Origin: Candidatus Poribacteria bacterium
GTDB taxonomy: Bacteria > Poribacteria > WGA-4E > WGA-3G
Assembly: GCA_965198235.1 (NCBI GenBank)
Contig: OZ240248.1
Span: 288,001-352,000 of the forward strand
Length of the DNA stretch: 64,000 nucleotides
Direction of reading: 5' to 3'
In this document: piece by piece, positions 521-63,934 of the stretch
Layout: each line of letters starts with the position of its first letter
Position numbering within the stretch: the stretch's first letter is position 1
The notes under the pieces: generated by a model
What the model was told of the DNA's origin: nothing
Database searches by the model: none
Seen by the model: only the letters and a program-made list of their open reading frames with translations
Made by a program: the position numbers and the translations under genes

Positions 521-1774
521 TCATTTCACCCGTTGCCCTGCTTGAAACACCGCAGCCACTCGGCTAAAAGCATCTACGTCGTTCGTTGGATCGCTCTCGA
601 AAGCGACGAGGTCAGCGATTTTGCCCGGTGCAATGGTCCCGAGGTCGTCCGCCATTCCGATTGCCTCGGCGGAAATGCGGGTCGCTGAGATAAGTGCTTC
701 CGCAGGCGTAAACCCGACTTGGACAAGTAGTTGCAAATCGTAGTCGAGATGACCGAATGCGAGATTACCAACGCCTGAATCGGTGCCGGGGACAATCCGA
801 TCGCGGAGCCCGTAGTCAAGCATACGTCGCATCACATCAAGGCGTACTTCCGCCCGCGTTTCAAGTCGTTGCAATTCGGTCGCTTCGTCAGGGGAAATGG
901 TATCCGTGTCACGTTTCGTACGGAGTTCAACGATGCGAGGATAACCCGTCCACGCTTGAAGGGTTGGGCTAATCCAGATGCCGGATTCTGCCATCATCTC
1001 GGCAATTTTGGGATCAAACCGGAGTTCACCATCTGGGTCGAGGAATTCCGCATGCTCCATCAGATCAATGCCTGCTTCAACCGCTCGCACCATCGACTCT
1101 TTCGCTCGGCAATGCGCTACCGTAAGCCGATGAAAATGGTGCGCCTCATGGACAGCGGCGTGCAACTCAGCGACGGAGTAACTGGCGCGTCCCGGAATCG
1201 TCCCGGCAGTTCCTCCACCTGATGCCATGATTTTGATGTAATCTGCGCCTTCGTGAACCAAGCGGCGGACCGAACGTCGCATCTCAGCCTCGCCATCCGC
1301 TGTCTCGTTACACATGTGGAAGTGCCCACCCGTGCAAGTGATCGGTCGTCCGCTCACTAAGGTGCGCGGACCCGGAATATAACCGCGTTCAAGCCCTTCC
1401 TTGAGTGTGAATCCTACCTTGTTCCTTGCACCGTGTTCGCGAAGGGTCGTAATCCCTGCGGCGAGATGGCGTTGCAGATTCATCGCGCCTGTCAGCACCA
1501 TCATCTCATCGGTTTCGGAGAACATCTGAATATAATTTCGTCCGTCACCTGCGAGGCTCAGATGTGTATGCCCATCAATGAGTCCCGGCGTGATGTACGC
1601 GTCTCCAAGGTCGATAACTTCTGCATCAAGGGGTGTCTGTTTCGTAATCTCTTCTTGATGTCCAACGGCATCAATCCGACCGTCGGTGACAAGAATCGCC
1701 TGATCGGTTTTAGCGTATGTACTTACCCCATCGATGAGCCGAGCGGCACGGATCTGAACAGTTTGATTTGACAT
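521..1774 (-). CDS. Metal-dependent amidohydrolase (Xaa-Pro dipeptidase-like)
   Basis: PGLIDGHTH, GADYIKIMASGG, GTDSG, GKIADLV. Start moved to MSNQ (1774) because the upstream extension is repeat DNA. Confidence 0.9.
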   Translation of the reverse strand: MSNQTVQIRAARLIDGVSTYAKTDQAILVTDGRIDAVGHQEEITKQTPLDAEVIDLGDAYITPGLIDGHTHLSLAGDGRNYIQMFSETDEMMVLTGAMNLQRHLAAGITTLREHGARNKVGFTLKEGLERGYIPGPRTLVSGRPITCTGGHFHMCNETADGEAEMRRSVRRLVHEGADYIKIMASGGGTAGTIPGRASYSVAELHAAVHEAHHFHRLTVAHCRAKESMVRAVEAGIDLMEHAEFLDPDGELRFDPKIAEMMAESGIWISPTLQAWTGYPRIVELRTKRDTDTISPDEATELQRLETRAEVRLDVMRRMLDYGLRDRIVPGTDSGVGNLAFGHLDYDLQLLVQVGFTPAEALISATRISAEAIGMADDLGTIAPGKIADLVAFESDPTNDVDAFSRVAAVFQAGQRVK

Positions 1775-1880
1775 ATTTTTAACTATGGCCCCCTGGACTG
1801 CCCTCCAAATGTAAAGCAAAGACAAATTATGCCATTTAAGGCATAATTTCATTACGGGCAGGTTTCTGGTTAATTCGCGG
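1775..1880 (-). repeat. Host repeat E1, filled allele carrying a 39-bp hairpin insert (1807-1845)
   Basis: Minus strand TTAACCAGAAACCTGCCCGTAATGAAAT-[insert]-GGAGGGCAG..CCATAGTTAAAAAT; homologous to 7233-7300 and 45985-46094. Confidence 0.85.
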
Positions 1881-1934
1881 CTGGGTTAAATCTATTGACG
1901 GTTCTTTTATCACGGTATTTGAGGGTCTCTTTTT

Positions 1935-6083: not shown

Positions 6084-7211
6084 CTATCCAAACAGGTATT
6101 TTTGCACAACATCTTCTCGCACCGTGACTCCCAGTCCCGGGACATCTCGGACAGCCACATAACCGTCCTCATGTGCCCACGGATCGCTGACCAATTCATG
6201 CTGCATTGGGGATTCGTGGGGCTTAAAATCCGTACAATCGGCATGTGTCGAACTCGCTAACATATGCAGACTCGCCGCGGTGTTTAAGGCACTACTCCAT
6301 GAATGGGCACTGAACAGAAGGTTCTCTGCCTCAATCAGTTTAATGACATGTCGGCTGCCGGTGAGTCCATGGCAACGTCCCGGATCAATTTGCACAATAT
6401 CGACACCGCCGGATTGGATGAGCCGTTTGTAACTTTCAACATTCCACTCATCCTCACCTGTTCCGATGGGTGTCATGACCGCCGATCGCAGCTGGGCATA
6501 CGCTTCAAAATTATCGGGCGGCAAGGGTTGCTCAATCCATTTGAGCCGATAGGGCTCGAGATCTCGGAAGCGTTGAATGGCTGTCGGGACATCCCAAATG
6601 CGATGGTGCCCAGGAGTGTCAACGACCAACTCAGGTTCGTCTCCGATGACCTCACGCACGCGACGAATCATCTCAAGGTCACGCTGGCGGTCGTGGCCGA
6701 ATAACGCCTCTGGTCGCATCCCCCAACCGCCTTTGACAACGCGGTAGTTTTGCTCTCGCAACCATCGAAATTCGTTGAGCGTCCATTCCAGGTCTTCCAT
6801 ATCAAAGATGATTGATGCCATTGCGACGATTTTGTCATGGAGTTGACCGCCAAGGAGTTGGCAAACAGGTAAACCGAGTGCCTTCCCTTTTAGGTCCCAT
6901 AACGCCATATCCACAGCACTGACAGCAAATGCGGCGATGCCTTCGGGTCCATACCACCAGATGCGGTCGAGCATTTTATGCCAGTGCCGTTCCACATCCA
7001 AAGCATCTTCACCGGTAAGCATCGGTGCAAATCCCTGATCAATAATTATCTTTGTTGCGAGTGTTGCTTCTCGAAATTGTGAGATACACTCTCCCCAGCC
7101 CACAAGACCGTCGTCGCTTTCCACGCGAGCGAGCGTGATGTAACGTTCGATACCTTTATAGTGTGGCTCCGGGTAGGCGAGTGGAAATGCTTGAATTTTT
7201 TGAATTTTCAT
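6084..7211 (-). CDS. Mandelate racemase/muconate lactonizing enzyme family protein
   Basis: GLVGWGE, SAVDMALWDLKGK, WIEQP, GEDE, PGLGV; start MKIQK. Confidence 0.9.
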   Translation of the reverse strand: MKIQKIQAFPLAYPEPHYKGIERYITLARVESDDGLVGWGECISQFREATLATKIIIDQGFAPMLTGEDALDVERHWHKMLDRIWWYGPEGIAAFAVSAVDMALWDLKGKALGLPVCQLLGGQLHDKIVAMASIIFDMEDLEWTLNEFRWLREQNYRVVKGGWGMRPEALFGHDRQRDLEMIRRVREVIGDEPELVVDTPGHHRIWDVPTAIQRFRDLEPYRLKWIEQPLPPDNFEAYAQLRSAVMTPIGTGEDEWNVESYKRLIQSGGVDIVQIDPGRCHGLTGSRHVIKLIEAENLLFSAHSWSSALNTAASLHMLASSTHADCTDFKPHESPMQHELVSDPWAHEDGYVAVRDVPGLGVTVREDVVQKYLFG

Positions 7212-7232
7212 CCTATTTTTCTCTCCTTTCAG

Positions 7233-7300
7233 ATTTTTTAATTTATGGCTGCTTGCTCTGCCCTCCATTTCATTTCGGGCAGGTTTCTGGTTAAGTCGCG
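7233..7300 (-). repeat. Host repeat E1, empty allele
   Basis: TTAACCAGAAACCTGCCCGAAATGAAATGGAGGGCAG..CCATAAATTAAAAAAT, i.e. 1775-1880 without the insert. Confidence 0.85.
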
Positions 7301-7386
7301 ACTGGAATTGAGGATTTGTACCGTCAGCAAGATAAATAGGATTTTTCAGTTACCGACCATACGCAACAAAATACGATTACACTGTA

Positions 7387-29709: not shown

Positions 29710-30771
29710 TTAAACTTCGCCGTCCCAATAACTCAGGCTTGGGTCCTTACGATAAATCTTCCCAACGACATAAGGCAAGACCTTGTTAGAATCCGGGTAT
29801 TCACTCACATCGTGCGGTGTAGTCGTGCCGAGAATGAATAACGTGACCGGCGCATCGCTGCTATTTACAAACTTATGTGCCCCGATTGTGCCAGGTGGAA
29901 ACGCGAGGAAGTCACCCTCATTTACCTCTACATCACCTCGCGGGGTTTTGAGTGTGCAGGCACCCTTCATAACATAGCACATCTCCTCCCCGAAATTGTG
30001 GAAATGCATTGGGAAACTCATCTTACCGGGTTGTAGCCGAATCACGCGATACCCTAAATTCTTGCCACCGATGAGCGGGTCTATGTCTTTATCCTCAAAG
30101 TCGTAAGGGTGTGGCGCGTTTTTATGCTGCCACGCGATTTCATCGATATGAATGCGGTTGATGTAGATGTCGCGCCGCGCTTGCAGGCAATCAACGAGGT
30201 ATTGGCGCGCATCTTTAAAAATGGAGTGCCCGTCACCGACGAGGATTGTATTGAATCGGAGTGCCAAAATTTTGCGCAATTCAAGTGCGGCTTTCGGAGG
30301 ATCGCTCAGTTTACCATCGGCGAGCAGCGTCAGCGCGCCCATCGGTTCACCGACCACGAGATCCCCGAACAGGACGGTCTGTTTCTCTGGAAAATAGAGC
30401 GCGATTTCGCCAGGGCTTTTTCCGTGACTGAGATGGATGGCATGTAAACCGGGAACAATTGCCTCACGGTCCTGAACCGTTCGGGTCGGTGTGATGTTCA
30501 GCGCATCGGCATCGGCATCATGCACAATCACGTCGGCACCTGTCCATTCCTGAAAGGCAGCGGCTTCGCGTTCATGATCGGCGTTGGTCAGAACGATCAA
30601 CTTCGCGCCGCCGAGTGCTTTCAGGTGTTCTCGGTCCTCATCGGACATTGGCACCGGGTCTATTAGGATATTTCCATCCGGACCCACCCACAAATGTCCA
30701 TTAAAGTCTATCTGCCGTTCCGGACTAAAGACTCCCCAACTGTACATATCTTCAAAAATCAAGCGTTTCAT
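29710..30771 (-). CDS. Metallo-beta-lactamase-fold plus cupin fusion protein
   Basis: LIDP, LTNADHER, GKSPG, GD, VGDG in the N-half; PMHFHNFGEE..AHKFVN cupin in the C-half. Confidence 0.78.
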   Translation of the reverse strand: MKRLIFEDMYSWGVFSPERQIDFNGHLWVGPDGNILIDPVPMSDEDREHLKALGGAKLIVLTNADHEREAAAFQEWTGADVIVHDADADALNITPTRTVQDREAIVPGLHAIHLSHGKSPGEIALYFPEKQTVLFGDLVVGEPMGALTLLADGKLSDPPKAALELRKILALRFNTILVGDGHSIFKDARQYLVDCLQARRDIYINRIHIDEIAWQHKNAPHPYDFEDKDIDPLIGGKNLGYRVIRLQPGKMSFPMHFHNFGEEMCYVMKGACTLKTPRGDVEVNEGDFLAFPPGTIGAHKFVNSSDAPVTLFILGTTTPHDVSEYPDSNKVLPYVVGKIYRKDPSLSYWDGEV

Positions 30772-30856
30772 TTTTAAATTATTCCTTGCGGTTAAGGCAC
30801 ACTGCTTTGGAATGTAACGGTTTTTTCCGAAACCCGCTTTCCACTTCGTTTCAAGC
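30772..30856 (-). repeat. E2 repeat abutting ATG
   Basis: GCTTGAAACGAAGTGGAAAGC ... ACCGCAAGGAATAATTTAAAA-ATG. Confidence 0.75.
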
Positions 30857-30882
30857 TATGTAATTTGACTTCTTTTAATTAC

Positions 30883-48651: not shown

Positions 48652-48697
48652 ATCAGGATCCTTCTTTATTAGCGGTCGGCTTTTCCTGCTGACGACT

Positions 48698-48751
48698 TTA
48701 ACCATCAACTCACACATTGATAGAAGTGTTAAGGCACGAGTTGATGGTTAA
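48698..48751 (-). repeat. 54-bp palindromic element (TTAACCATCAACTC ends)
   Basis: Inverted copy of 46005-46057. Confidence 0.8.
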
Positions 48752-48799
48752 AACTATTCTGCTAATGACCCACAACTGACAACTCTTACAAACGAAAAC

Positions 48800-48887
48800 C
48801 AAGCCTGAAATGAAATGGAAGGCGACTCGTACACAAAAACATCAAATAATCAGACACCTATACTTATCCGCAAGGTAAAATTAAAAA
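48800..48887 (+). repeat. E2 repeat abutting the secG stop codon
   Basis: CAAGCCTGAAATGAAATGGAAGGCGACTC ... CCGCAAGGTAAAATTAAAAA. Confidence 0.75.
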
Positions 48888-49307
48888 CTATTCTGTGCTG
48901 TCTGTACCACCACTGTCAAGTTCCGTCTTTGATGCGTCGTCAGCAGCGTCTCCACTGCCGCCATCTGTAGTCGTTTCAACGCTTCCTTCGTCTGTGGTGT
49001 CAACAGGTTCGGTTGTGGCTTCCTGTGTTGTTTCCTGCTCGAGCGGTGTGAGTGCCCCGCCGCCATCTTCGCCATAGAAACGCATCAGGAACAGGGAGAT
49101 AACCATGAACCCGATAGCAAGCCACGTCGTTAGTTTACTAAGGAAGGTCGCGGCACCGCGCCCTCCGAGAACAGACTGCATTTCCGCGCCACCAAATGCG
49201 CTTGATGAGAGCCCTTCACCCTTGCTGTCCTGTAACAAAATAATCAGCGTCAAGACGACGCAGACCGGCACGAAGATAAACACTACAAAACCGATAATAA
49301 TTTCCAT
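48888..49307 (-). CDS. secG: Preprotein translocase subunit SecG
   Basis: ILLQDSKGEGLSSSAFGG, FLSKLT; downstream of tpiA. Confidence 0.9.
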   Translation of the reverse strand: MEIIIGFVVFIFVPVCVVLTLIILLQDSKGEGLSSSAFGGAEMQSVLGGRGAATFLSKLTTWLAIGFMVISLFLMRFYGEDGGGALTPLEQETTQEATTEPVDTTDEGSVETTTDGGSGDAADDASKTELDSGGTDSTE

Positions 49308-49341: not shown

Positions 49342-50097
49342 CTATTCTGCATTTTTCACGATTTGTGCGAACGATTCCGCCTCAAGACTTGCGCCGCCAA
49401 CGAGTGCACCGTCTACATCGGGCTGCGCCATGAGTTCCGCTGCATTCTCCGGTTTAACGCTGCCACCGTATTGAATACATATCTGCGACGCGACTTCTGC
49501 CGAGTGCCCGTTCGTTAGCAAGCCTCGAATAAAGTTATGGACTTCCTGTGCTTGGGCAGGCGTGGCTGTCTTCCCAGTGCCGATAGCCCAAACCGGTTCA
49601 TAAGCGATGACGCAGGACGAAAGGTCAGCGGCGGATAAGCCAGCAATGCCGCCCGTAACGTGGCTCTTAATCACTGCTTCTGTTTGTCCAGCTTCCCGTT
49701 CTTCGAGTTGCTCACCGACGCAGATAATTGGCTTTAAGCCGTGCGCTAACGCCGCTTTCACTTTTTGGTTGACGCTGTCATTCGTCTCACCGAAATATTG
49801 GCGCCGTTCCGAATGCCCGATAATGACGTAATCACACCCGGTATCTTTCAGCATTGGCGCGGAGACTTCGCCGGTAAATGCCCCGCCATCCTCCCAATAG
49901 ACATCTTGAGCGGCGAGACGAATGTTGCTGCCCCCTATGGCATCACTGACAGCGGAGAGCGCAGTAAACGGCGGTGCAACGATGACTTCAACGCCGGTGG
50001 CATCCGCAACTAATGCTTTTAACGCCGTTGTGAGCGCGACCGCCTCTGAAATCGTTTTGTTCAGTTTCCAATTTCCCGCAATGATAGGTATTCGCAT
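49342..50097 (-). CDS. tpiA: Triose-phosphate isomerase
   Basis: [34 protein letters not shown]. Confidence 0.98.
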
Positions 50098-50270
50098 ATT
50101 TTTAACTATTTTTTAAACTATTAACTTTGGTTAATTCCAACCCGTCCCAGGGGTTCAGAGGGTTTTGACTTCACCGGCAACCATTGTGGAACGAAATTTT
50201 GCCCACACGCGGCAAAATTTGTCTTTGCTTTACATTTGGAACAATGCCCAGATTTCCATAGTTAAAAAAG
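50098..50270. mobile_element. Repeat mosaic with TTTTTAACTAT/ATAGTTAAAAA inverted ends and filled hairpin core
   Basis: CATTGT-GGAACGAAAT-[40-bp insert 50198-50237]-GGA-ACAATG; homologous to 51391-51586. Confidence 0.75.
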
Positions 50271-50367
50271 CAGCAGGACATTCTCACCGCGAAGCAGACG
50301 CACTGCGGATTTTACCGAGGCATCCCTCTGCCAAGGCGTTCCGACGGCTCCCGTTAGGGAAACCAGA

Positions 50368-51372
50368 TTAAAAAACCTGGGCAACGAGCTCAACGAGACG
50401 GTTGGAGTAGCCCCACTCGTTATCATACCATGAAAGGACTTTAATCAACCCATCATCAATCACTTTGGTGAAGGGAGCGTCGAGAACGGAGGAGAGTTTG
50501 TTCCCGTTGAAATCCGATGAAACGAGGTCGAGTTCGGAATAGCCGAGAATCCCGTCCAAATTGCCTTCTGCTGCTTCTTTCAGTGCTGCGTTGACCGCTT
50601 CGGCACTCGGTCTCTGCTTGAGATCGACGGTGAGATCGACGACGGAGACGTTCGGTGTCGGTACACGGATTGCGAATCCATCCAGTTTGCCGTTCAATTC
50701 TGGCAGGACTTTTCCAACTGCGACAGCGGCACCAGTTGTCGTCGGAATCATCGAGAGCGTTGCTGCCCGTGCGCGGCGCATGTCGGAGTGCGGGAAATCA
50801 TGAATCCGCTGGTCGCCGGTGTAGGCATGGACGGTTGTCATTAAGCCGCTCTCAATTCCAAACTCTTCATGCAGTACCTTTGCAACGGGTGCAAGGCAGT
50901 TCGTCGTACACGAGGCATTAGAAATGACATGATGTTCTGCTTTGTCATATTTATCGTCATTGACACCGATCACAATCGTGATGTCCTCACCCTTCGCGGG
51001 GGCGGAGATGACCACTTTTTTCGCACCACCGGCGGTGATATGTTTTTCAGCGTCTTCCCGCTCTGTAAAGAAACCGGTGGATTCGATAACGACATCCGCA
51101 CCGAGTTCACCCCACGGTAGATTGCCGGGATCTCGTTCGGCGAGAACCTGTATCTCTTTCCCGTTTACCACCAATCCGTTTTCTGTGGCAGTGATGTCAT
51201 CGGACAAGATGCCGTGAATGGAGTCGTACTGGAGAAGGTGTGCGAGTGTCTCCGGGCTCGTTAAATCGTTGATAGCCACGAAGTCTATATCTAACGCGGG
51301 GTTCTGCAATGCCGCTCGAAAAGCGTTCCTACCGATCCGACCAAAACCATTAATACCTACTTTAGTTGACAT
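50368..51372 (-). CDS. gap: Type I glyceraldehyde-3-phosphate dehydrogenase
   Basis: [29 protein letters not shown]. Confidence 0.98.
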
Positions 51373-51390
51373 AGGACAAATAAATTCCTT

Positions 51391-51586
51391 TTTTTAAACT
51401 ATTAACTCTGAGCATCCTTCCACTACATTTTACGATGGTTGTCGGTACAGTTAGAAACCTTTTGAAACCTAAAACAGGCTCATAACTTAGATGAAAACCG
51501 TTGCAGAATGAAATTATGCCTTAAATGGCATAATTTGTCTTTGCTTTACATTTGGAGCAACGCCCAGATTCCCATAGTTAGAAAAT
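51391..51586. mobile_element. Repeat mosaic with inverted ends and filled hairpin core
   Basis: CGTTGC-AGAATGAAAT-[39-bp insert 51515-51553, identical to 1807-1845]-GGA-GCAACG. Confidence 0.78.
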
Positions 51587-51819
51587 CCTTTGTAAATATT
51601 GTGCCGTTACAGGGCTTTCATTTAACAGCAAGTTTTAGAAACCTGCAAGCCACATTGACAGAAACGAACATGCGGGGCTATTCACAATAGGCTTGCAAGC
51701 GATGCCCCTTGATTTGCTATTATCTAAGTTTCACGATTTACGTCTTTTTAATTATACCCCAAAGTGTAGTAAATTGCAAGTGCGTTGTTAAGTCCATAGC
51801 CGTTCTGAAGCAATTTGAC

Positions 51820-52725: not shown

Positions 52726-52794
52726 TGTTTTTGCTGGGGGTGTTTTTGCTTGGGTATTTCTGCGTATTGATAGGGTGTTTCCTCTGCAGATTTC
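52726..52794 (-). repeat. Stacked partial copies of R3 repeat
   Basis: R3 = AAATCCGCAGAAATACCCAAGCAAAAAC; also at 14021-14047, 16952-16994, 63792-63820. Confidence 0.75.
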
Positions 52795-52816
52795 CCCGAT
52801 TGTTATAGAGGAAAAG

Positions 52817-57634: not shown

Positions 57635-57663
57635 CATTTGTTTTTTTGAATTTCCAGGACGAG

Positions 57664-57752
57664 CAAGCCCGAAACGAAGTGGAGGGCGACTCTACGGAAA
57701 TAAACGTCAATGCGCTAACCCGCTTGACCGAACCGCAAGGAAAATTAGAAAA
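57664..57752 (+). repeat. E2 repeat abutting the aspS ATG
   Basis: CAAGCCCGAAACGAAGTGGAGGGCGACTC ... ACCGAACCGCAAGGAAAATTAGAAAA-ATG. Confidence 0.78.
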
Positions 57753-59890: not shown

Positions 59891-61498
59891 ATGAACGAAA
59901 ATGGAAATAAACCAAAGGTCAGCCTCGGTCTGCTTTACGGGATTGTCATTGCTATTGTTGCTGGGGCAATCATCGGTGGGTTCGCACCAGGCTTTGCTGT
60001 CCACACAACAATACTGGGTGAAATATTCTTAAACCTACTGAAGATGATAGTAGTGCCGCTCGTCATTTTGTCTATGATAGTCGGAATAACGAATTTAGGC
60101 GATATTCGCAACATCGGTTCCATCGGGGGACGAACTGTCCTGTACTACATGGCGACAACTGCTATTTCCGTTCTCATTGGCATGATTCTCGTCAACATCA
60201 TCTTGCCGGGGAAGGGACTATCACAAGGCGAAGAGCGGGCTGATCTCAGTTACACACTCTCTGGTCCTGAGATGCTCACTGTTGAGTTGAACGCGGAATT
60301 CAATCGGACATATAACAATAAATATGTCATCACCCTCGTTGACCAGAATGTGCGTGGCGAAGTCGAATCAATTTCTGGGACAACAGTCACGGTGAAATCG
60401 TGGCAACCGCTATCCGAAGATGCCCATTACGTCGCAACCGACAGCGGCGAACGCTTATTGTTCATTGAGGGTCGTCTTGAGAGGGTAGATCCCCAAAATA
60501 CGGGTAAAGGTATTAATATTGGCTTGCCGATTGCCACAAGAGTGTCCGGCAAAATGGAACGGACTATGGGGAGTACCATCAAGGAGGTGTTTCTCGGCAA
60601 CGAAGAGACCGGCAAAGAGGGAATGATCCCCTCAAACGTCTTCAAAGCGATGGTGCGAACCGATATTCTGCCCTTAATCTTTTTCTCACTTCTCATCGGT
60701 GCCGCTCTATCCATGCTTGGGGATATCGGTAGACCTGTCGTCGCCGTGATTTCGGGGTTAAATGAGGCGGTGATGAAACTCGTTCACTGGATAATGTATG
60801 TCGCACCGGTTGGTATCTTCGGCTTAATCGCTGGTAGGATCGGTGAGGCAAAAGGGTTCGCAGGTTTTTGGCCCGAACTCGTAGCGGTGGGCAAGTATAG
60901 CGCGACAGTCGTGTTAGGACTCGGCGTACACGGTGCCATCGTTTTACCGATACTCCTGTTGATCTTGGGACGCAGAAATCCGCTCAACTACTTCAAGGGC
61001 ATGGCAACCGCCTTACTCAACGCCTTTTCGACGGCGAGTTCAAGTGCAACTTTGCCGCTAACGATGGAAGGGGTTGAGAATCAGAACGGTGTCTCCAGAC
61101 GTACCTCCAGTTTTGTTCTTCCGTTGGGAGCAACCATTAACATGGATGGAACTGCACTCTATGAGGCGGTCGCGGTCATGTTCATCGCACAGGTCTATGC
61201 GATTTCCATGGATCCAGCGCAACAAGTTGTTGTTGTGCTTACCGCTACCTTGGCAGCAATAGGGGCCGCAGGGATTCCGGAGGCAGGGCTTGTCACAATG
61301 GTTATCGTACTCAGAGCCGTGGATCTTCCAATTGAAGGTATAACGCTGATCCTCTCCATCGATTGGCTACTTGACCGGTTCCGTACCACAGTTAACGTCT
61401 GGGGTGACAGCATCGGTGCAGGCGTGATTGAGACGTATGAATCCAGAGATTCAACTGATGCCCCGGCAACCGTTGGAGCGGTGCCCAGAGGCAAATAA
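59891..61498 (+). CDS. Dicarboxylate/amino acid:cation symporter (DAACS, GltP-like) with loop insertion
   Basis: FSTASSSATLP, GATINMDGT, GAAGIP, DRFRT. Confidence 0.92.
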   Translation: MNENGNKPKVSLGLLYGIVIAIVAGAIIGGFAPGFAVHTTILGEIFLNLLKMIVVPLVILSMIVGITNLGDIRNIGSIGGRTVLYYMATTAISVLIGMILVNIILPGKGLSQGEERADLSYTLSGPEMLTVELNAEFNRTYNNKYVITLVDQNVRGEVESISGTTVTVKSWQPLSEDAHYVATDSGERLLFIEGRLERVDPQNTGKGINIGLPIATRVSGKMERTMGSTIKEVFLGNEETGKEGMIPSNVFKAMVRTDILPLIFFSLLIGAALSMLGDIGRPVVAVISGLNEAVMKLVHWIMYVAPVGIFGLIAGRIGEAKGFAGFWPELVAVGKYSATVVLGLGVHGAIVLPILLLILGRRNPLNYFKGMATALLNAFSTASSSATLPLTMEGVENQNGVSRRTSSFVLPLGATINMDGTALYEAVAVMFIAQVYAISMDPAQQVVVVLTATLAAIGAAGIPEAGLVTMVIVLRAVDLPIEGITLILSIDWLLDRFRTTVNVWGDSIGAGVIETYESRDSTDAPATVGAVPRGK

Positions 61499-61506
61499 TT
61501 TAAAAA

Positions 61507-63741
61507 TTGAACACGCAAAACGAACCGAATCCACAGCAGCCAGCACTTAGCGTCACATCAATTCTCGCAATTATCAGCGTCGTGCTCGCCACGGGATGGA
61601 TAGCCTTTGCCTATTACAAAGGCACTGCCAACAGCAGCCGAATACTGTTGCTGCATCCAGTCGTGCCGATGCTGCTGATTGTCCTGCTCATCCGCGTTTA
61701 TCGCTGGATCGACCTAAAGAGCATAGTGATTCTTGAAATACTGATGATCGCTGTGTGGGTTTTTATACGTTTGTTGGGCGTGTTGACCCCTTTCATTTTA
61801 GGGTTTGGCTTCGCTTATATCTTTAGGTTTCTCTGGAATGCTCTCCCATTCAAAGCCAGATACCTACGCGGACTCGCGACGGTAATAATTGTCCTTGTGT
61901 GCGGCAGTTTGCTTTTCTACACTGGGAAACAGGTTAGTAAGCAAGCAACCCAGATGGGGAGTGGGTTACTAAAGTTTTATCATGAGATTGTTCTGCCTTA
62001 TGTCGTTGGTGAGACGTTTGAGGCGGTCGCTATCAGTGTCGATTTTCCTACTATTGAGGATGATGTAGCAGGAAGAAACAATCAAACGACTCCAGCAGAA
62101 ACATTCTACCTTGGTACGAACCACGGCATTTATAAAATTCAACAGGATGCAGAGAGAGAGTTTGTTCGTATTGGTATCACAAACGGCGTGCTTCTCGGCA
62201 AACCGATACAAGCACTTGCAGCAGCTGGAAACGTTATCTACGCTGGTACGCAGAGTGGGTTATATCGGTATTACAAGGCATTGCCTGCTGATGTCACTGA
62301 AGCGATTGACGGTGATGTAACAGACATCCAAAACGTCACACCGAGAATATGGCACAAGGTACAAGCGACCCCTTTCGATACTCTTTCCGTTCAAGCGATC
62401 AACGTTCCGAATTGGAATAATACCCAGATTTATGTTGGAACACAAAAAGGACTTTACAGCAGTAAGAATTTAGGAAAAACATGGCGTGAGGTCGCCCCTC
62501 AAATTTATAGTGAAAGGTCCATCGTCAGTATTGTTTCTATTGTGGATACGAATGGTGATAGGACAATTTATGTCGCCAGTACAGCGATAATTGATGCGAT
62601 GCCCTCAGAACGGATAGTTCCCATGCCTACGGTCGCAACAGTGCATTGGTACCTGGAGGATTCCGCTCTTGAGTGGAATCCGCTTCCTTCTATAACGGAT
62701 TCGGTTTATGCACTGGCAAGTGGAGGTAAAACGTGGATTGTCCCGCAAGCCTCTATAGGCTTGCGCTTAGAAGACCCCTCACAGGTGTTTGATATTGAAC
62801 TGTACGCCGGCACGCCCGATGGTCTCTATGAATGGCATCGTCTTGGCACATGGCGAAAGACGGAAGGTACTGCTGCAGTCTCGTTGTTAGCGTCGGCACC
62901 TTCTGGTGTATACATCGGTAATGGAACCGCTATCCTGCATCGTGCCGTTCCTACAGAGGGATGGCAGCCATTTGCTACACGGAACGAAGGGATTAGTTAC
63001 ACCTATAGGGACGAGCCTATTGTCCAGCAGGTGAAAACATACTTGACCGAAAGAATTCCAACAATCGCCCAAACCGGTGGTGAGGCTATCAGGGAAGGGG
63101 TTCAGTTCGCGGGTTCGATCGCTTTTGGGTTTGGCGGGTTTTTAGCCACAGTATCACTCGCGTTCATTGTGTTTGTCTATGCAAGCCAGTCGTTTGACAA
63201 TTATTTCCGCAGTTTCATCACGCTGGTCCCTGAACTTCATCGTGAAACTGTCAAGACCTACCTGCGCGAAATTGATAGGAATCTACAACAGTTCCTAAAA
63301 GGACAAGTAACCGTCATCGCGATTGTGTCAGTGGTCTCCTGTATCGCGTACAGCATTATCGGTGTGCCGTTCGCATTGGTTATTGGGGTACTCGCCGGAA
63401 TCTGTAACGCTATACCGACCTTTGGACCCTTTATCGGCGGCGGTTTCGCCTATGTGGCGATGCTAATGGGGCTGGCGGCTGGGGATTTCGGTATAATTGA
63501 TTTCCTCATTCGCAGTGCATTCGTGTTGGGTGCCATTCTTGGCATTCAGATGCTTGACAACTCATTGATTTCACCTAAAATTATGAGCACCGCTGTTAAT
63601 GTAGATCCGCTGCTCATTATGTTTGCTGTGATTGTTGGGGCAGCTGTACTCGGATTTTGGGGTGTATTGCTTGCAATTCCTATTATTGTTGTGGTAAAAT
63701 CGGTTATTGCCGTTTCTCAATCTTTAAATGATCGAATCTGA
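61507..63741 (+). CDS. AI-2E (PerM) family transporter with inserted beta-propeller-like domain
   Basis: LTPFILG..AY, FLKGQ, NAIPTFGP, DNSLISPKIM, GVLLAIP; central YxGT..GLY repeats. Confidence 0.82.
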   Translation: MNTQNEPNPQQPALSVTSILAIISVVLATGWIAFAYYKGTANSSRILLLHPVVPMLLIVLLIRVYRWIDLKSIVILEILMIAVWVFIRLLGVLTPFILGFGFAYIFRFLWNALPFKARYLRGLATVIIVLVCGSLLFYTGKQVSKQATQMGSGLLKFYHEIVLPYVVGETFEAVAISVDFPTIEDDVAGRNNQTTPAETFYLGTNHGIYKIQQDAEREFVRIGITNGVLLGKPIQALAAAGNVIYAGTQSGLYRYYKALPADVTEAIDGDVTDIQNVTPRIWHKVQATPFDTLSVQAINVPNWNNTQIYVGTQKGLYSSKNLGKTWREVAPQIYSERSIVSIVSIVDTNGDRTIYVASTAIIDAMPSERIVPMPTVATVHWYLEDSALEWNPLPSITDSVYALASGGKTWIVPQASIGLRLEDPSQVFDIELYAGTPDGLYEWHRLGTWRKTEGTAAVSLLASAPSGVYIGNGTAILHRAVPTEGWQPFATRNEGISYTYRDEPIVQQVKTYLTERIPTIAQTGGEAIREGVQFAGSIAFGFGGFLATVSLAFIVFVYASQSFDNYFRSFITLVPELHRETVKTYLREIDRNLQQFLKGQVTVIAIVSVVSCIAYSIIGVPFALVIGVLAGICNAIPTFGPFIGGGFAYVAMLMGLAAGDFGIIDFLIRSAFVLGAILGIQMLDNSLISPKIMSTAVNVDPLLIMFAVIVGAAVLGFWGVLLAIPIIVVVKSVIAVSQSLNDRI

Positions 63742-63758
63742 GCACCGTTCCATTACAT

Positions 63759-63934
63759 TTTTCTAACTATGGGAATCTGTTAACCATCGAAGAAATCCGC
63801 AGAAACACCCAAGCAAAAACCCTCGTGCTTTAACATCTATAACGGAGTCGAGTTGATGGTTAAACTGCTCCACTACGTTGAAGAAACATCGGATTTAGTC
63901 TGGGAATAGACTAAATCCATTCCTTGTATTACAT
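63759..63934. repeat. Repeat mosaic: E1 terminus, palindromic element interrupted by R3, R5 hairpin
   Basis: TTCTAACTATGGGAATCTG; TTAACCATC-[R3]-CTCGTGCTTT..GAGTTGATGGTTAA; GGATTTAGTCT..AGACTAAATCC. Confidence 0.8.

Follow-up and report, generated by a model that had tools for sequence, protein, structure and literature searches.

What is the small hairpin at position 7260 of this DNA, whose apex recurs in the same stretch within different stems, and what does selection maintain in it? The window analysed here is the whole stretch of 64,000 nt from a Candidatus Poribacteria genome. The source genome, 5.17 Mb in two contigs (C1 and C2), is referred to as G000.

Hairpin sites in the window and unit types in the genome

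A total of four matches to the strict core RRAAYGAARTGGA were found in the window against 0.09 expected, and none of 100 shuffles reached four. The preliminary description had reported this core between different complementary arms, and these arms were found again: GCCC/GGGC at 7260 and 57667, GCCT/AGGC at 48803 and GCTT/AAGC at 30836. At 7260 the four pairs belong to a longer stem of 6 bp, CTGCCC/GGGCAG, spanning 7258-7282. The arms reported at 50182 (CATTGT/ACAATG) and 51499 (CGTTGC/GCAACG) are also complementary; the contiguous core given for these two sites proved incorrect, as a module of 38-39 nt splits it into GGAACGAAATT ... ACATTTGGA. Another split-core copy, at 1770-1891(-), was missing from the earlier list. 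Two further modules had been proposed to recur. GC-GAA-GC showed no enrichment in the window (8 matches against 9.3 expected), and CC-GCAA-GG (CCGCAAGG) showed a modest one (7 against 2.1 expected, a count reached by 2 of 100 shuffles), with three of its seven matches falling in the tails of the type B units defined below.

A covariance model (R1) built from the alignment of copies in other genomes matched all four core sites (E 8e-09 to 0.004) and a fifth window hairpin, a degenerate copy at 51406-51443(-). The match at the 7260 site covers 7251-7288(-) with 38.8 bits and E 8e-09. The whole genome gave about 3764 candidates; 150 of them were scored, and the model matched 148 of these. The window features are listed in Table 1.

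Table 1. Repeat units and hairpins in the 64,000-nt window (R1, covariance model from other-genome copies).
Feature	Position	Strand	Details
Core RRAAYGAARTGGA	7264-7276; 30840-30852; 48807-48819; 57671-57683	-; -; +; +	
Hairpin at 7260	7258..7282	-	6-bp CTGCCC/GGGCAG closes GAAATGAAATGGA; core 7264-7276
Whole type A unit	7232..7313	-	head TTAACCAGAAACC, hairpin, tail ..CCATAAATTAAAAAA; nhmmer 51.6 bits
Type B unit	30772..30866	-	hairpin GCTT/AAGC 30836-30856; R1 25.8 bits, E 5.7e-05
Type B-like unit	48795..48887	+	hairpin GCCT/AGGC 48803-48823; R1 19.6 bits, E 0.004
Type B unit	57655..57752	+	hairpin GCCC/GGGC 57667-57687; R1 27.1 bits, E 2.3e-05
Type A unit, core split by 39-nt module	50152..50271	+	CATTGT 50182-50187, ACAATG 50241-50246
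Type-A-like head and tail without hairpin	50098..50151	-	from comparison with 8 sister-genome loci
Degenerate type A unit, core AAAATGTAGTGGA	51387..51472	-	nhmmer 47.7 bits; R1 51406-51443(-), E 0.0055
Type A unit, core split by 38-nt module	51473..51588	+	CGTTGC 51499-51504, GCAACG 51557-51562
Type A unit, split core	1770..1891	-	TGCCC-GTAATGAAATT..insert..TTTGGA-GGGCA; nhmmer
Truncated unit, loop = TGGA	61474..61510	+	tail adjoins TTG start at 61507; nhmmer
Partial reversed unit	63719..63759	-	against stop codon 63739-63741 of ORF 61507-63741; nhmmer

The type A unit at 7232..7313 lies upstream of an enolase-superfamily gene (6084-7211(-); Pfam), with the native SD leader AAAGGAGAG kept between its tail and the ATG. 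The end of the type B unit at 30772..30866, ..CCGCAAGGAATAATTTAAAA, runs up to the ATG of gene 29710-30771(-), and the tail ..CCGCAAGGAAAATTAGAAAA of the unit at 57655..57752 terminates at the ATG (57753) of the aspartyl-tRNA synthetase gene. The tail ..CCGCAAGGTAAAATTAAAAA of the type B-like unit stops directly at the opposite-strand secG stop codon (CTA = TAG, 48888-48890). At tpiA (Pfam TIM) the tail ..AATAGTTAAAAAT of the unit without hairpin adjoins the ATG (50097), and the native GGAAAGGATT leader is displaced. The degenerate unit at 51387..51472 is the inverted, tails-out partner of 51473..51588, with its tail toward the start of the gap (GAPDH) gene; in the unit at 1770..1891 an in-frame ATG (1774-1772) comes after the tail TTAAAAAT.

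The strict core is present in 154 copies in G000, and a relaxed core, G[ATG]AA[CT]GNA[GA]TGGA, in 405, of which 323 have at least four consecutive paired arm positions. Classification by flanks gave 222 copies of type A, 111 of type B and 72 others. The type A unit (~68 nt) consists of TTAACCAGAAACC, a 6-bp stem, the core, the complementary arm and GCCCAGGAGCCCATAGTTAAAAAA. The type B unit (~100 nt) consists of an often present GTAG tag, a 4-bp stem, the core, the complementary arm and GGATCTACGGAAAGG...GAACCGCAAGGAAAATTAAAAA, with CCGCAAGGAAAATTAAAAA as its end. An nhmmer profile of type A detected 501 units in the genome: 264 with an intact core, 41 with one to three changes at nine invariant positions, 21 gapped, one without hairpin and 174 partial. 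Among the 21 gapped units, 14 lack the same 10 nt. These 14 sites (e.g. G000:C1:4650701-4650779) have hairpins CATCGT-GGA-ACGATG without exactly 10 nt of the core, and with the CATCGT/ACGATG stem the core and 3' arm form a near-tandem 10-nt repeat (GGAACGAAGT GGAACGATG), a possible clue to the origin or variation of the loop.

The best paralogue pairs share 90-97% identity over only ~65-68 nt (from -25 to +30 relative to the core), and this shared span marks the conserved unit. No near-identical long paralogues were found in the genome, so there has been no very recent burst and present mobility counts only as a possibility. Four type B units stand in tandem with a 122-nt period at G000:C1:1761249-1761615. 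The copies on the 43.9-kb contig C2 (C2:23188 and C2:32894) share their flanks with C1:798599 and C1:808309, and C2 may duplicate this chromosomal segment (C1:798-808 kb) rather than be an independent plasmid.

Beyond the 405 copies, 65 hairpins with perfectly complementary arms carry an insert of 38-84 nt at one place in the loop, and inserts are nested up to three deep. The loop module of 38-41 nt, ..ATGCC TTAAAT GGCAT AATTTGTCTTTGCTTTACATT, is present in the window at 50197-50236, 51510-51552 and about 1811-1850, and is itself interrupted in 52-nt and 78-84-nt forms. A G-TTTTTG- or TGTTTC-type module begins within 6 nt after 34 cores. The motif GGGGTTTTTGCTTGGG has 283 genome sites at up to two mismatches; short repeats of this type are often tandem (window about 63795-63815 and about 52742-52800), sit in hairpin 3' arms (34 cores) and vary between the orthologous aspS leaders of sister species. 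A palindromic repeat, TTTAACCATCAACTCG...CGAGTTGATGGTTAAA, at 48697-48752 and 63820-63866 of the window, follows some hairpins elsewhere in the genome. This palindrome caused a weak match to Rfam MIR162_1 (E 2.7), which was set aside as spurious.

Covariation of the stem and the invariant apex

Analysis of the 501 units revealed nine core positions (1, 3, 4, 6, 8 and 10-13) conserved at 90% or more; variation is seen at position 2, in the middle of G-N-A and in the pair 5/9. The hairpin comprises a stem of 4-6 bp with free sequence, an internal loop of G-N-A opposite G-G-A, and a 2-bp mini-stem with a G-N-A triloop. Judged from sequence, the core pattern fits a purine-rich 3x3 internal loop followed by two base pairs and a GNA triloop. 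GNA loops of the d(GCGAAGC) type are known for their stability. Covariation of the inner mini-stem, proposed in the preliminary description, was borne out by 241 C-G, 154 T-A, 7 C.A and 3 T.G pairs among the 405 copies, counted with a search pattern that allowed all four combinations.

At each of the six pairs of the type A stem, 206-216 of the 222 copies are Watson-Crick paired. A total of 61 distinct arm pairs occur, and four of the six pairs show three or four pair types. For a test without preselected arms, five arm positions per side were left open in a collection scan, which gave at least 102 copies from other genomes. Perfectly complementary arms were found in 77 of the 102, with 35 arm pairs, against 11.8 (maximum 21) in 1000 shuffles. 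In the alignment of these other-genome copies 97.8% of the cells are paired (75.2 +/- 1.2 shuffled) and the covariation score is 0.581 (0.178 shuffled), and none of 500 shuffles reached either the score or the paired share. The copies are related, so the shuffle figures are not probabilities; slid controls with partners shifted by 1-3 columns, which retain the relatedness, gave 19-53% paired. Stem pairing in this family is kept by compensatory change.

The earlier proposal that selection acts on a folded structure recognised by a protein is supported in its first half, as the arms differ and stay complementary; for the second half, no protein partner was found in this analysis. An outer CGTA/TACG helix in type B is unsupported (25 of 88 perfect against 19.3 shuffled, maximum 27), and RNAalifold on 87 type B copies returned the hairpin as the only conserved structure. 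No known Rfam family covers the hairpin, which had 0 matches at the gathering score; Rfam 15 gave a single match in the whole window at E up to 1, off all elements, and none on the elements of 48-52 kb at E up to 10.

Nearest-neighbour DNA folding, which leaves the non-canonical apex unmodelled, placed the outer stem in every minimum-energy structure, with energies of -1.4 to -5.6 kcal/mol. The 6-bp stem at 7258..7282 beats shuffles (z -3.0). The 4-bp type B stems do no better than shuffles (z -0.3 to -1.2), and their stability would therefore need the unmodelled apex or a protein.

Placement against genes, orthologous spacers and relatives

Genes were taken as greedy longest-ORF calls (3975 + 27 ORFs), a crude set in which single cases may err. 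Against this set the repeats of the genome sit between genes, and the genes they flank are functionally diverse and unrelated (Pfam). Co-orientation with the downstream gene was found for 118 of 222 type A and 80 of 111 type B copies. The median distance is 30 nt both from the core to the next ORF's start in co-oriented copies and from the core to the preceding ORF's stop in reversed copies. Among the 401 profile units with a tail, 233 point it toward a start and 168 toward a stop. In 56 of the 233 start-side units the triplet directly behind the A-run (+1) is the ORF's start codon, and 73 have the start within 0..+2; in 51 of the 168 stop-side units the gene ends with the TAA that the TTAA of the tail provides. 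A start codon also follows the A-run in 78 of the 102 other-genome copies, a count made without control and not used as evidence. As a by-product of this placement, the A-rich tail adjoins genes and often supplies the sequence before the start codon or the TAA stop of the opposite strand.

Units are frequently paired in inverse orientation. Neighbours within 400 nt are tails-out in 57 cases and tails-in in 2, the core-to-core gap being most often 72-75 nt, and the nhmmer units gave 114 against 8. Units 300-4000 nt apart mostly turn their tails toward the intervening gene (62 against 8). Among the other-genome copies (102 units at 101 loci, 200-nt flanks), an inverted partner was found upstream in 13 and downstream in none. 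The tails-out dimer is ~190 bp long and has inverted terminal tail units, TTTTTTAACTATGG.. and ..CCATAGTTAAAAAA; single units, which are as common as dimers, are without terminal inverted repeats. The two hairpins of a pair differ in stem and loop variant. No target-site duplication was seen in dimers read by eye, and TTAA/YTAR as a 4-bp target duplication was dropped because the YTAR tetramers of the left and right end do not match in four of six dimers.

Candidate mobilising enzymes were compared with the repeat positions. G000 has six Y1 genes, three of IS200/IS605 type and three RAYT-like. Around 35 Y1 loci from 31 genomes of the genus, a set with a minority of the loci of a weak third Y1 class, the motif occurs twice in 110,324 nt, below the genome average and in neither case adjacent to the gene. 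Counts of Y1 genes and motifs do not track each other (10 and 18 in G008, 12 and 24 in G019, 6 and 216 in G000). On either side of the RAYT-like genes lies a different, GCACTCCAGCGGAGTGC-type REP; at G000:C1:606918-607262 (L005) and C1:3853757-3854101 (L004) this flanking REP consists of GCACTCCAGCGGAGTGC plus ATGTCTATAGA, and the REP pair recurs four times downstream of L005, with a period of 121 nt. The IS200/IS605-type TnpA genes (G000:C1:119838-120191, 4381488-4381841 and 4792784-4793137; L001-L003) each have a long ORF directly downstream, a putative TnpB by its position, and the end hairpins of these three copies are unrelated to the repeat hairpin. None of the 6 DDE_3 and 16 DDE_Tnp_1 genes of G000 has an adjacent unit, one having a unit 1.2 kb away, and IS110 is absent from G000. 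The ORFs enclosed by eight far tails-out pairs in G000 are housekeeping genes, with no autonomous copy among them.

Orthologous comparison covered four spacers, with one genome per species as relatives. For site 7260, in the spacer that precedes the enolase-like gene, 16 loci were compared, G000 included. Three genomes (G000, G046 and G004) have a type A unit, with the loop interrupted in G004; in G046 the stem is CTGTGC/GCACAG against CTGCCC/GGGCAG in G000, and the tail adjoins the ATG. Five species have a type B unit up to the same ATG, one of them with a loop insert. Seven loci have other sequences with the native leader kept, and a native leader of 64 nt, including AAAGGAGAG, is present in G006.

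The aspS upstream region (site 57667) holds a type B unit with an identical hairpin and differing flanks in three species. A 22-25-nt GTTTTTGCTTGGG... module lies within the hairpin's 3' arm in two species, arrays of B units and fragments occur in five, several have unrelated leaders, and in four the genes are only about 34 nt apart by BLAST coordinates. The gap-tpiA junction is 12 nt (TAATGGAAAGGATTATG, gene strand; CAT..CAT TAA) in seven of eight sister-genome loci, L158 being different; in G000 the spacer holds about 270 nt of repeats, and the insertion with 50152..50271 is absent from the eight aligned sister loci. Within the gap-tpiA-secG cluster (49342-51372) the native ribosome-binding site of tpiA is removed, in G000 only among the compared genomes. 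The ~185 nt at 51390-51575 of G000, which hold two type A units back to back, are missing in five of six relatives, with a possible 6-8-bp duplication at 51390/51575. Taken across orthologues, native SD leaders have been replaced at tpiA, the aspS locus and the enolase-like gene in several species.

Comparison of copy numbers across the phylum revealed enrichment of the motif in all of the first 24 same-genus genomes (20-270 hits against 2-13 for a reversed-pattern control) and background levels in 16 genomes of three other families. A tighter pattern gave 4-216 hits in 44 same-genus genomes, with the maximum in G000; about 39 of the 44 are enriched and about five lie near the control. The spread among congeners is about 50-fold. 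In the remaining 76 genomes of the phylum, 37 of them from sister genera in the same family, the pattern has 0-6 hits, like the control. Among the 80 collection-scan matches listed, 78 are from Candidatus or uncultured Poribacteria and two from an 'uncultured bacterium'. In the genomes sampled, the family is confined to one genus-level group of Candidatus Poribacteria.

Candidate explanations and comparison with known repeats

Our analysis suggests, as a somewhat probable reading, that the family resembles REP/REPIN elements or MITEs, is or was mobile, and is recognised through its folded hairpin. The hairpin is the conserved core module of a small, non-coding, modular intergenic repeat family whose units appear to behave as mobile or formerly mobile DNA. 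This behaviour is suggested by the roughly 50-fold spread in copy number, by spacers that are empty or hold type A, type B or other repeats, and by inverted pairs of fixed spacing like those of REPINs or MITEs. A trans-acting protein would recognise the folded hairpin, most likely on single-stranded DNA that arises when the element is copied or recombines. Recognition as a folded strand would explain why pairing and apex are kept as the stem sequence drifts. Since the repeat is modular, lineage-restricted, intergenic, variable between species and placed at gene boundaries, selection may act on the element's propagation rather than on a host function.

A lesser possibility, which we hold to be rather unlikely, is a cis-acting RNA module in 5' leaders and, reversed, in 3' ends. 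It would be bound by an RNA-binding protein or stop exonucleases, would control the stability of the mRNA and the start of its translation together with the A-rich or AAGGA tail, and would have spread as a working leader like Neisseria REP2. Tails that terminate exactly at start codons, the replacement of native SD leaders at the three loci above, and a hairpin identical in three orthologous aspS leaders despite differing flanks all speak for such a module, as does type B, which is mostly co-oriented and bears an SD-like CCGCAAGGA. In RNA-library contigs (X1-X4) the elements are contiguous with genes, although these contigs are without strand, start, end or level information, their depth peaks at repeat bins are sums over paralogues, and DNA carry-over is possible. 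Against an RNA role, type A is co-oriented in only about half of its copies, so that half are antisense to neighbouring genes. Mismatches of the G.T type (G.U in RNA) in the type A stem are not commoner than those of the A.C type (20 against 22; 11 against 13 in co-oriented copies), and both orientations together with this equality argue against a one-strand RNA constraint. The functionally unrelated flanking genes and a copy number of 4 to 216 among congeners are unlike a conserved regulon, and neither an Rfam family nor, by RNAalifold, a type B structure beyond the hairpin was found. With respect to replication, cumulative GC skew of C1 is lowest near 0.37 Mb and highest near 4.05 Mb; the leading strand so inferred holds 51% of ORFs and 101 of 219 type A units, figures that are not readable with skew-defined arms so unequal.

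A self-propagating 'portable gene boundary' is an unlikely, more speculative reading, in which a protein would recognise the purine-rich hairpin, taken here with tandem G.A-type mismatches and a GNA mini-hairpin, and set a defined end at start and stop codons. If true, hundreds of genes, tpiA and aspS among them, would have exchanged their SD leader for an SD-less A-rich one, with translation start in Poribacteria depending on the hairpin or the A-tract, and a new hairpin-guided targeting of gene boundaries would exist in this group.

Quite improbable is a double-stranded DNA site bound by a nucleoid-associated or topology protein, in the way that gyrase and IHF bind BIME/REP: the 13-bp core with its nine positions conserved at 90% or more, the extragenic location and the high copy number agree with it, but it leaves both the complementarity of the free-sequence arms and the inner C-G/T-A covariation unexplained. 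Least credible are intrinsic terminators or attenuators between genes. The 168 of 401 tail-bearing units just past a stop codon, where GGTTTCTGGTT then follows the stem, speak for them. Against them stand the larger number of units that face start codons (233), the short 4-6-bp stems with a 13-nt loop, the weak energies given above, the lack of a proper T-run after the stem and the conserved asymmetric loop, which is no terminator feature.

Poribacteria are uncultivated sponge symbionts, and to our knowledge little is known about their genome organisation. The repeats rewrite the translation-initiation regions of housekeeping genes, and the spacers diverge strongly between sister species. They therefore matter for start-site annotation and for the assembly of Poribacteria genomes from metagenomes, and offer a natural case for a putative hairpin-recognising protein. 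An invariant apical motif with freely covarying stems, one end placed precisely at start or stop codons, and layered smaller elements nested in the loop are unusual among REP/MITE-like repeats. No description of intergenic repeats in Poribacteria was found in the portions of text returned by a full-text literature search.

MITEs such as Correia/NEMIS, RUP and BOX offer one comparison. The tails-out dimer with inverted terminal units shares features of the MITE class (PMC3184786), being non-coding, modular and intergenic and altering the leaders of adjoining genes. Unlike MITEs, the repeat has no consistent target-site duplication and no IS with the same ends in G000, and single units are as common as dimers. 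Neither does it resemble the ends of IS200/IS605 elements (PATE-like), as the end hairpins of the resident TnpA/TnpB copies are unrelated.

Neisseria REP2 and Borrelia IR are described as intergenic elements immediately upstream of ORFs with no transposase identified, carrying an RBS and start context and stem-loops near the 5' end; REP2 comprises about 26 copies, each 120-150 bp long, and is associated with genes that are regulated together (Delihas 2011, PMC3184786). Like REP2 as portrayed there, the Poribacteria repeat ends immediately upstream of the ORF and supplies the leader and start context. In contrast to that account, it is present in hundreds of copies beside unrelated housekeeping genes, many of them reversed at stops and many in inverted pairs.

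With the GTAG-tagged REP superfamily (Di Nocera et al. 2013, PMC3733652), 55 of 111 type B copies share a GTAG that directly precedes the stem on its 5' side and overlaps it. Type A differs in having neither GTAG nor CGTC (0 of 222), its commonest tetramers being CCTG, CCAT and CCAC, and the type B stem is only 4 bp.

A further comparison is with the REP/REPIN elements and RAYT transposases of E. coli and Pseudomonas (Bertels & Rainey; PMC3116915, PMC3337134). In keeping with those descriptions, the Poribacteria repeats are short imperfect palindromes, hundreds of them extragenic, with inverted doublets of fixed spacer, lineage-specific copy number and other mobile elements inserted into the hairpins. 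Unlike REP/REPIN, none of the Y1/RAYT genes at the 35 loci is flanked by these hairpins. Dozens of complementary stem variants surround an invariant 13-nt apex, the two stems of a pair differ, and one end of the repeat is set against start or stop codons, all of which distinguish the Poribacteria family from REP/REPIN.
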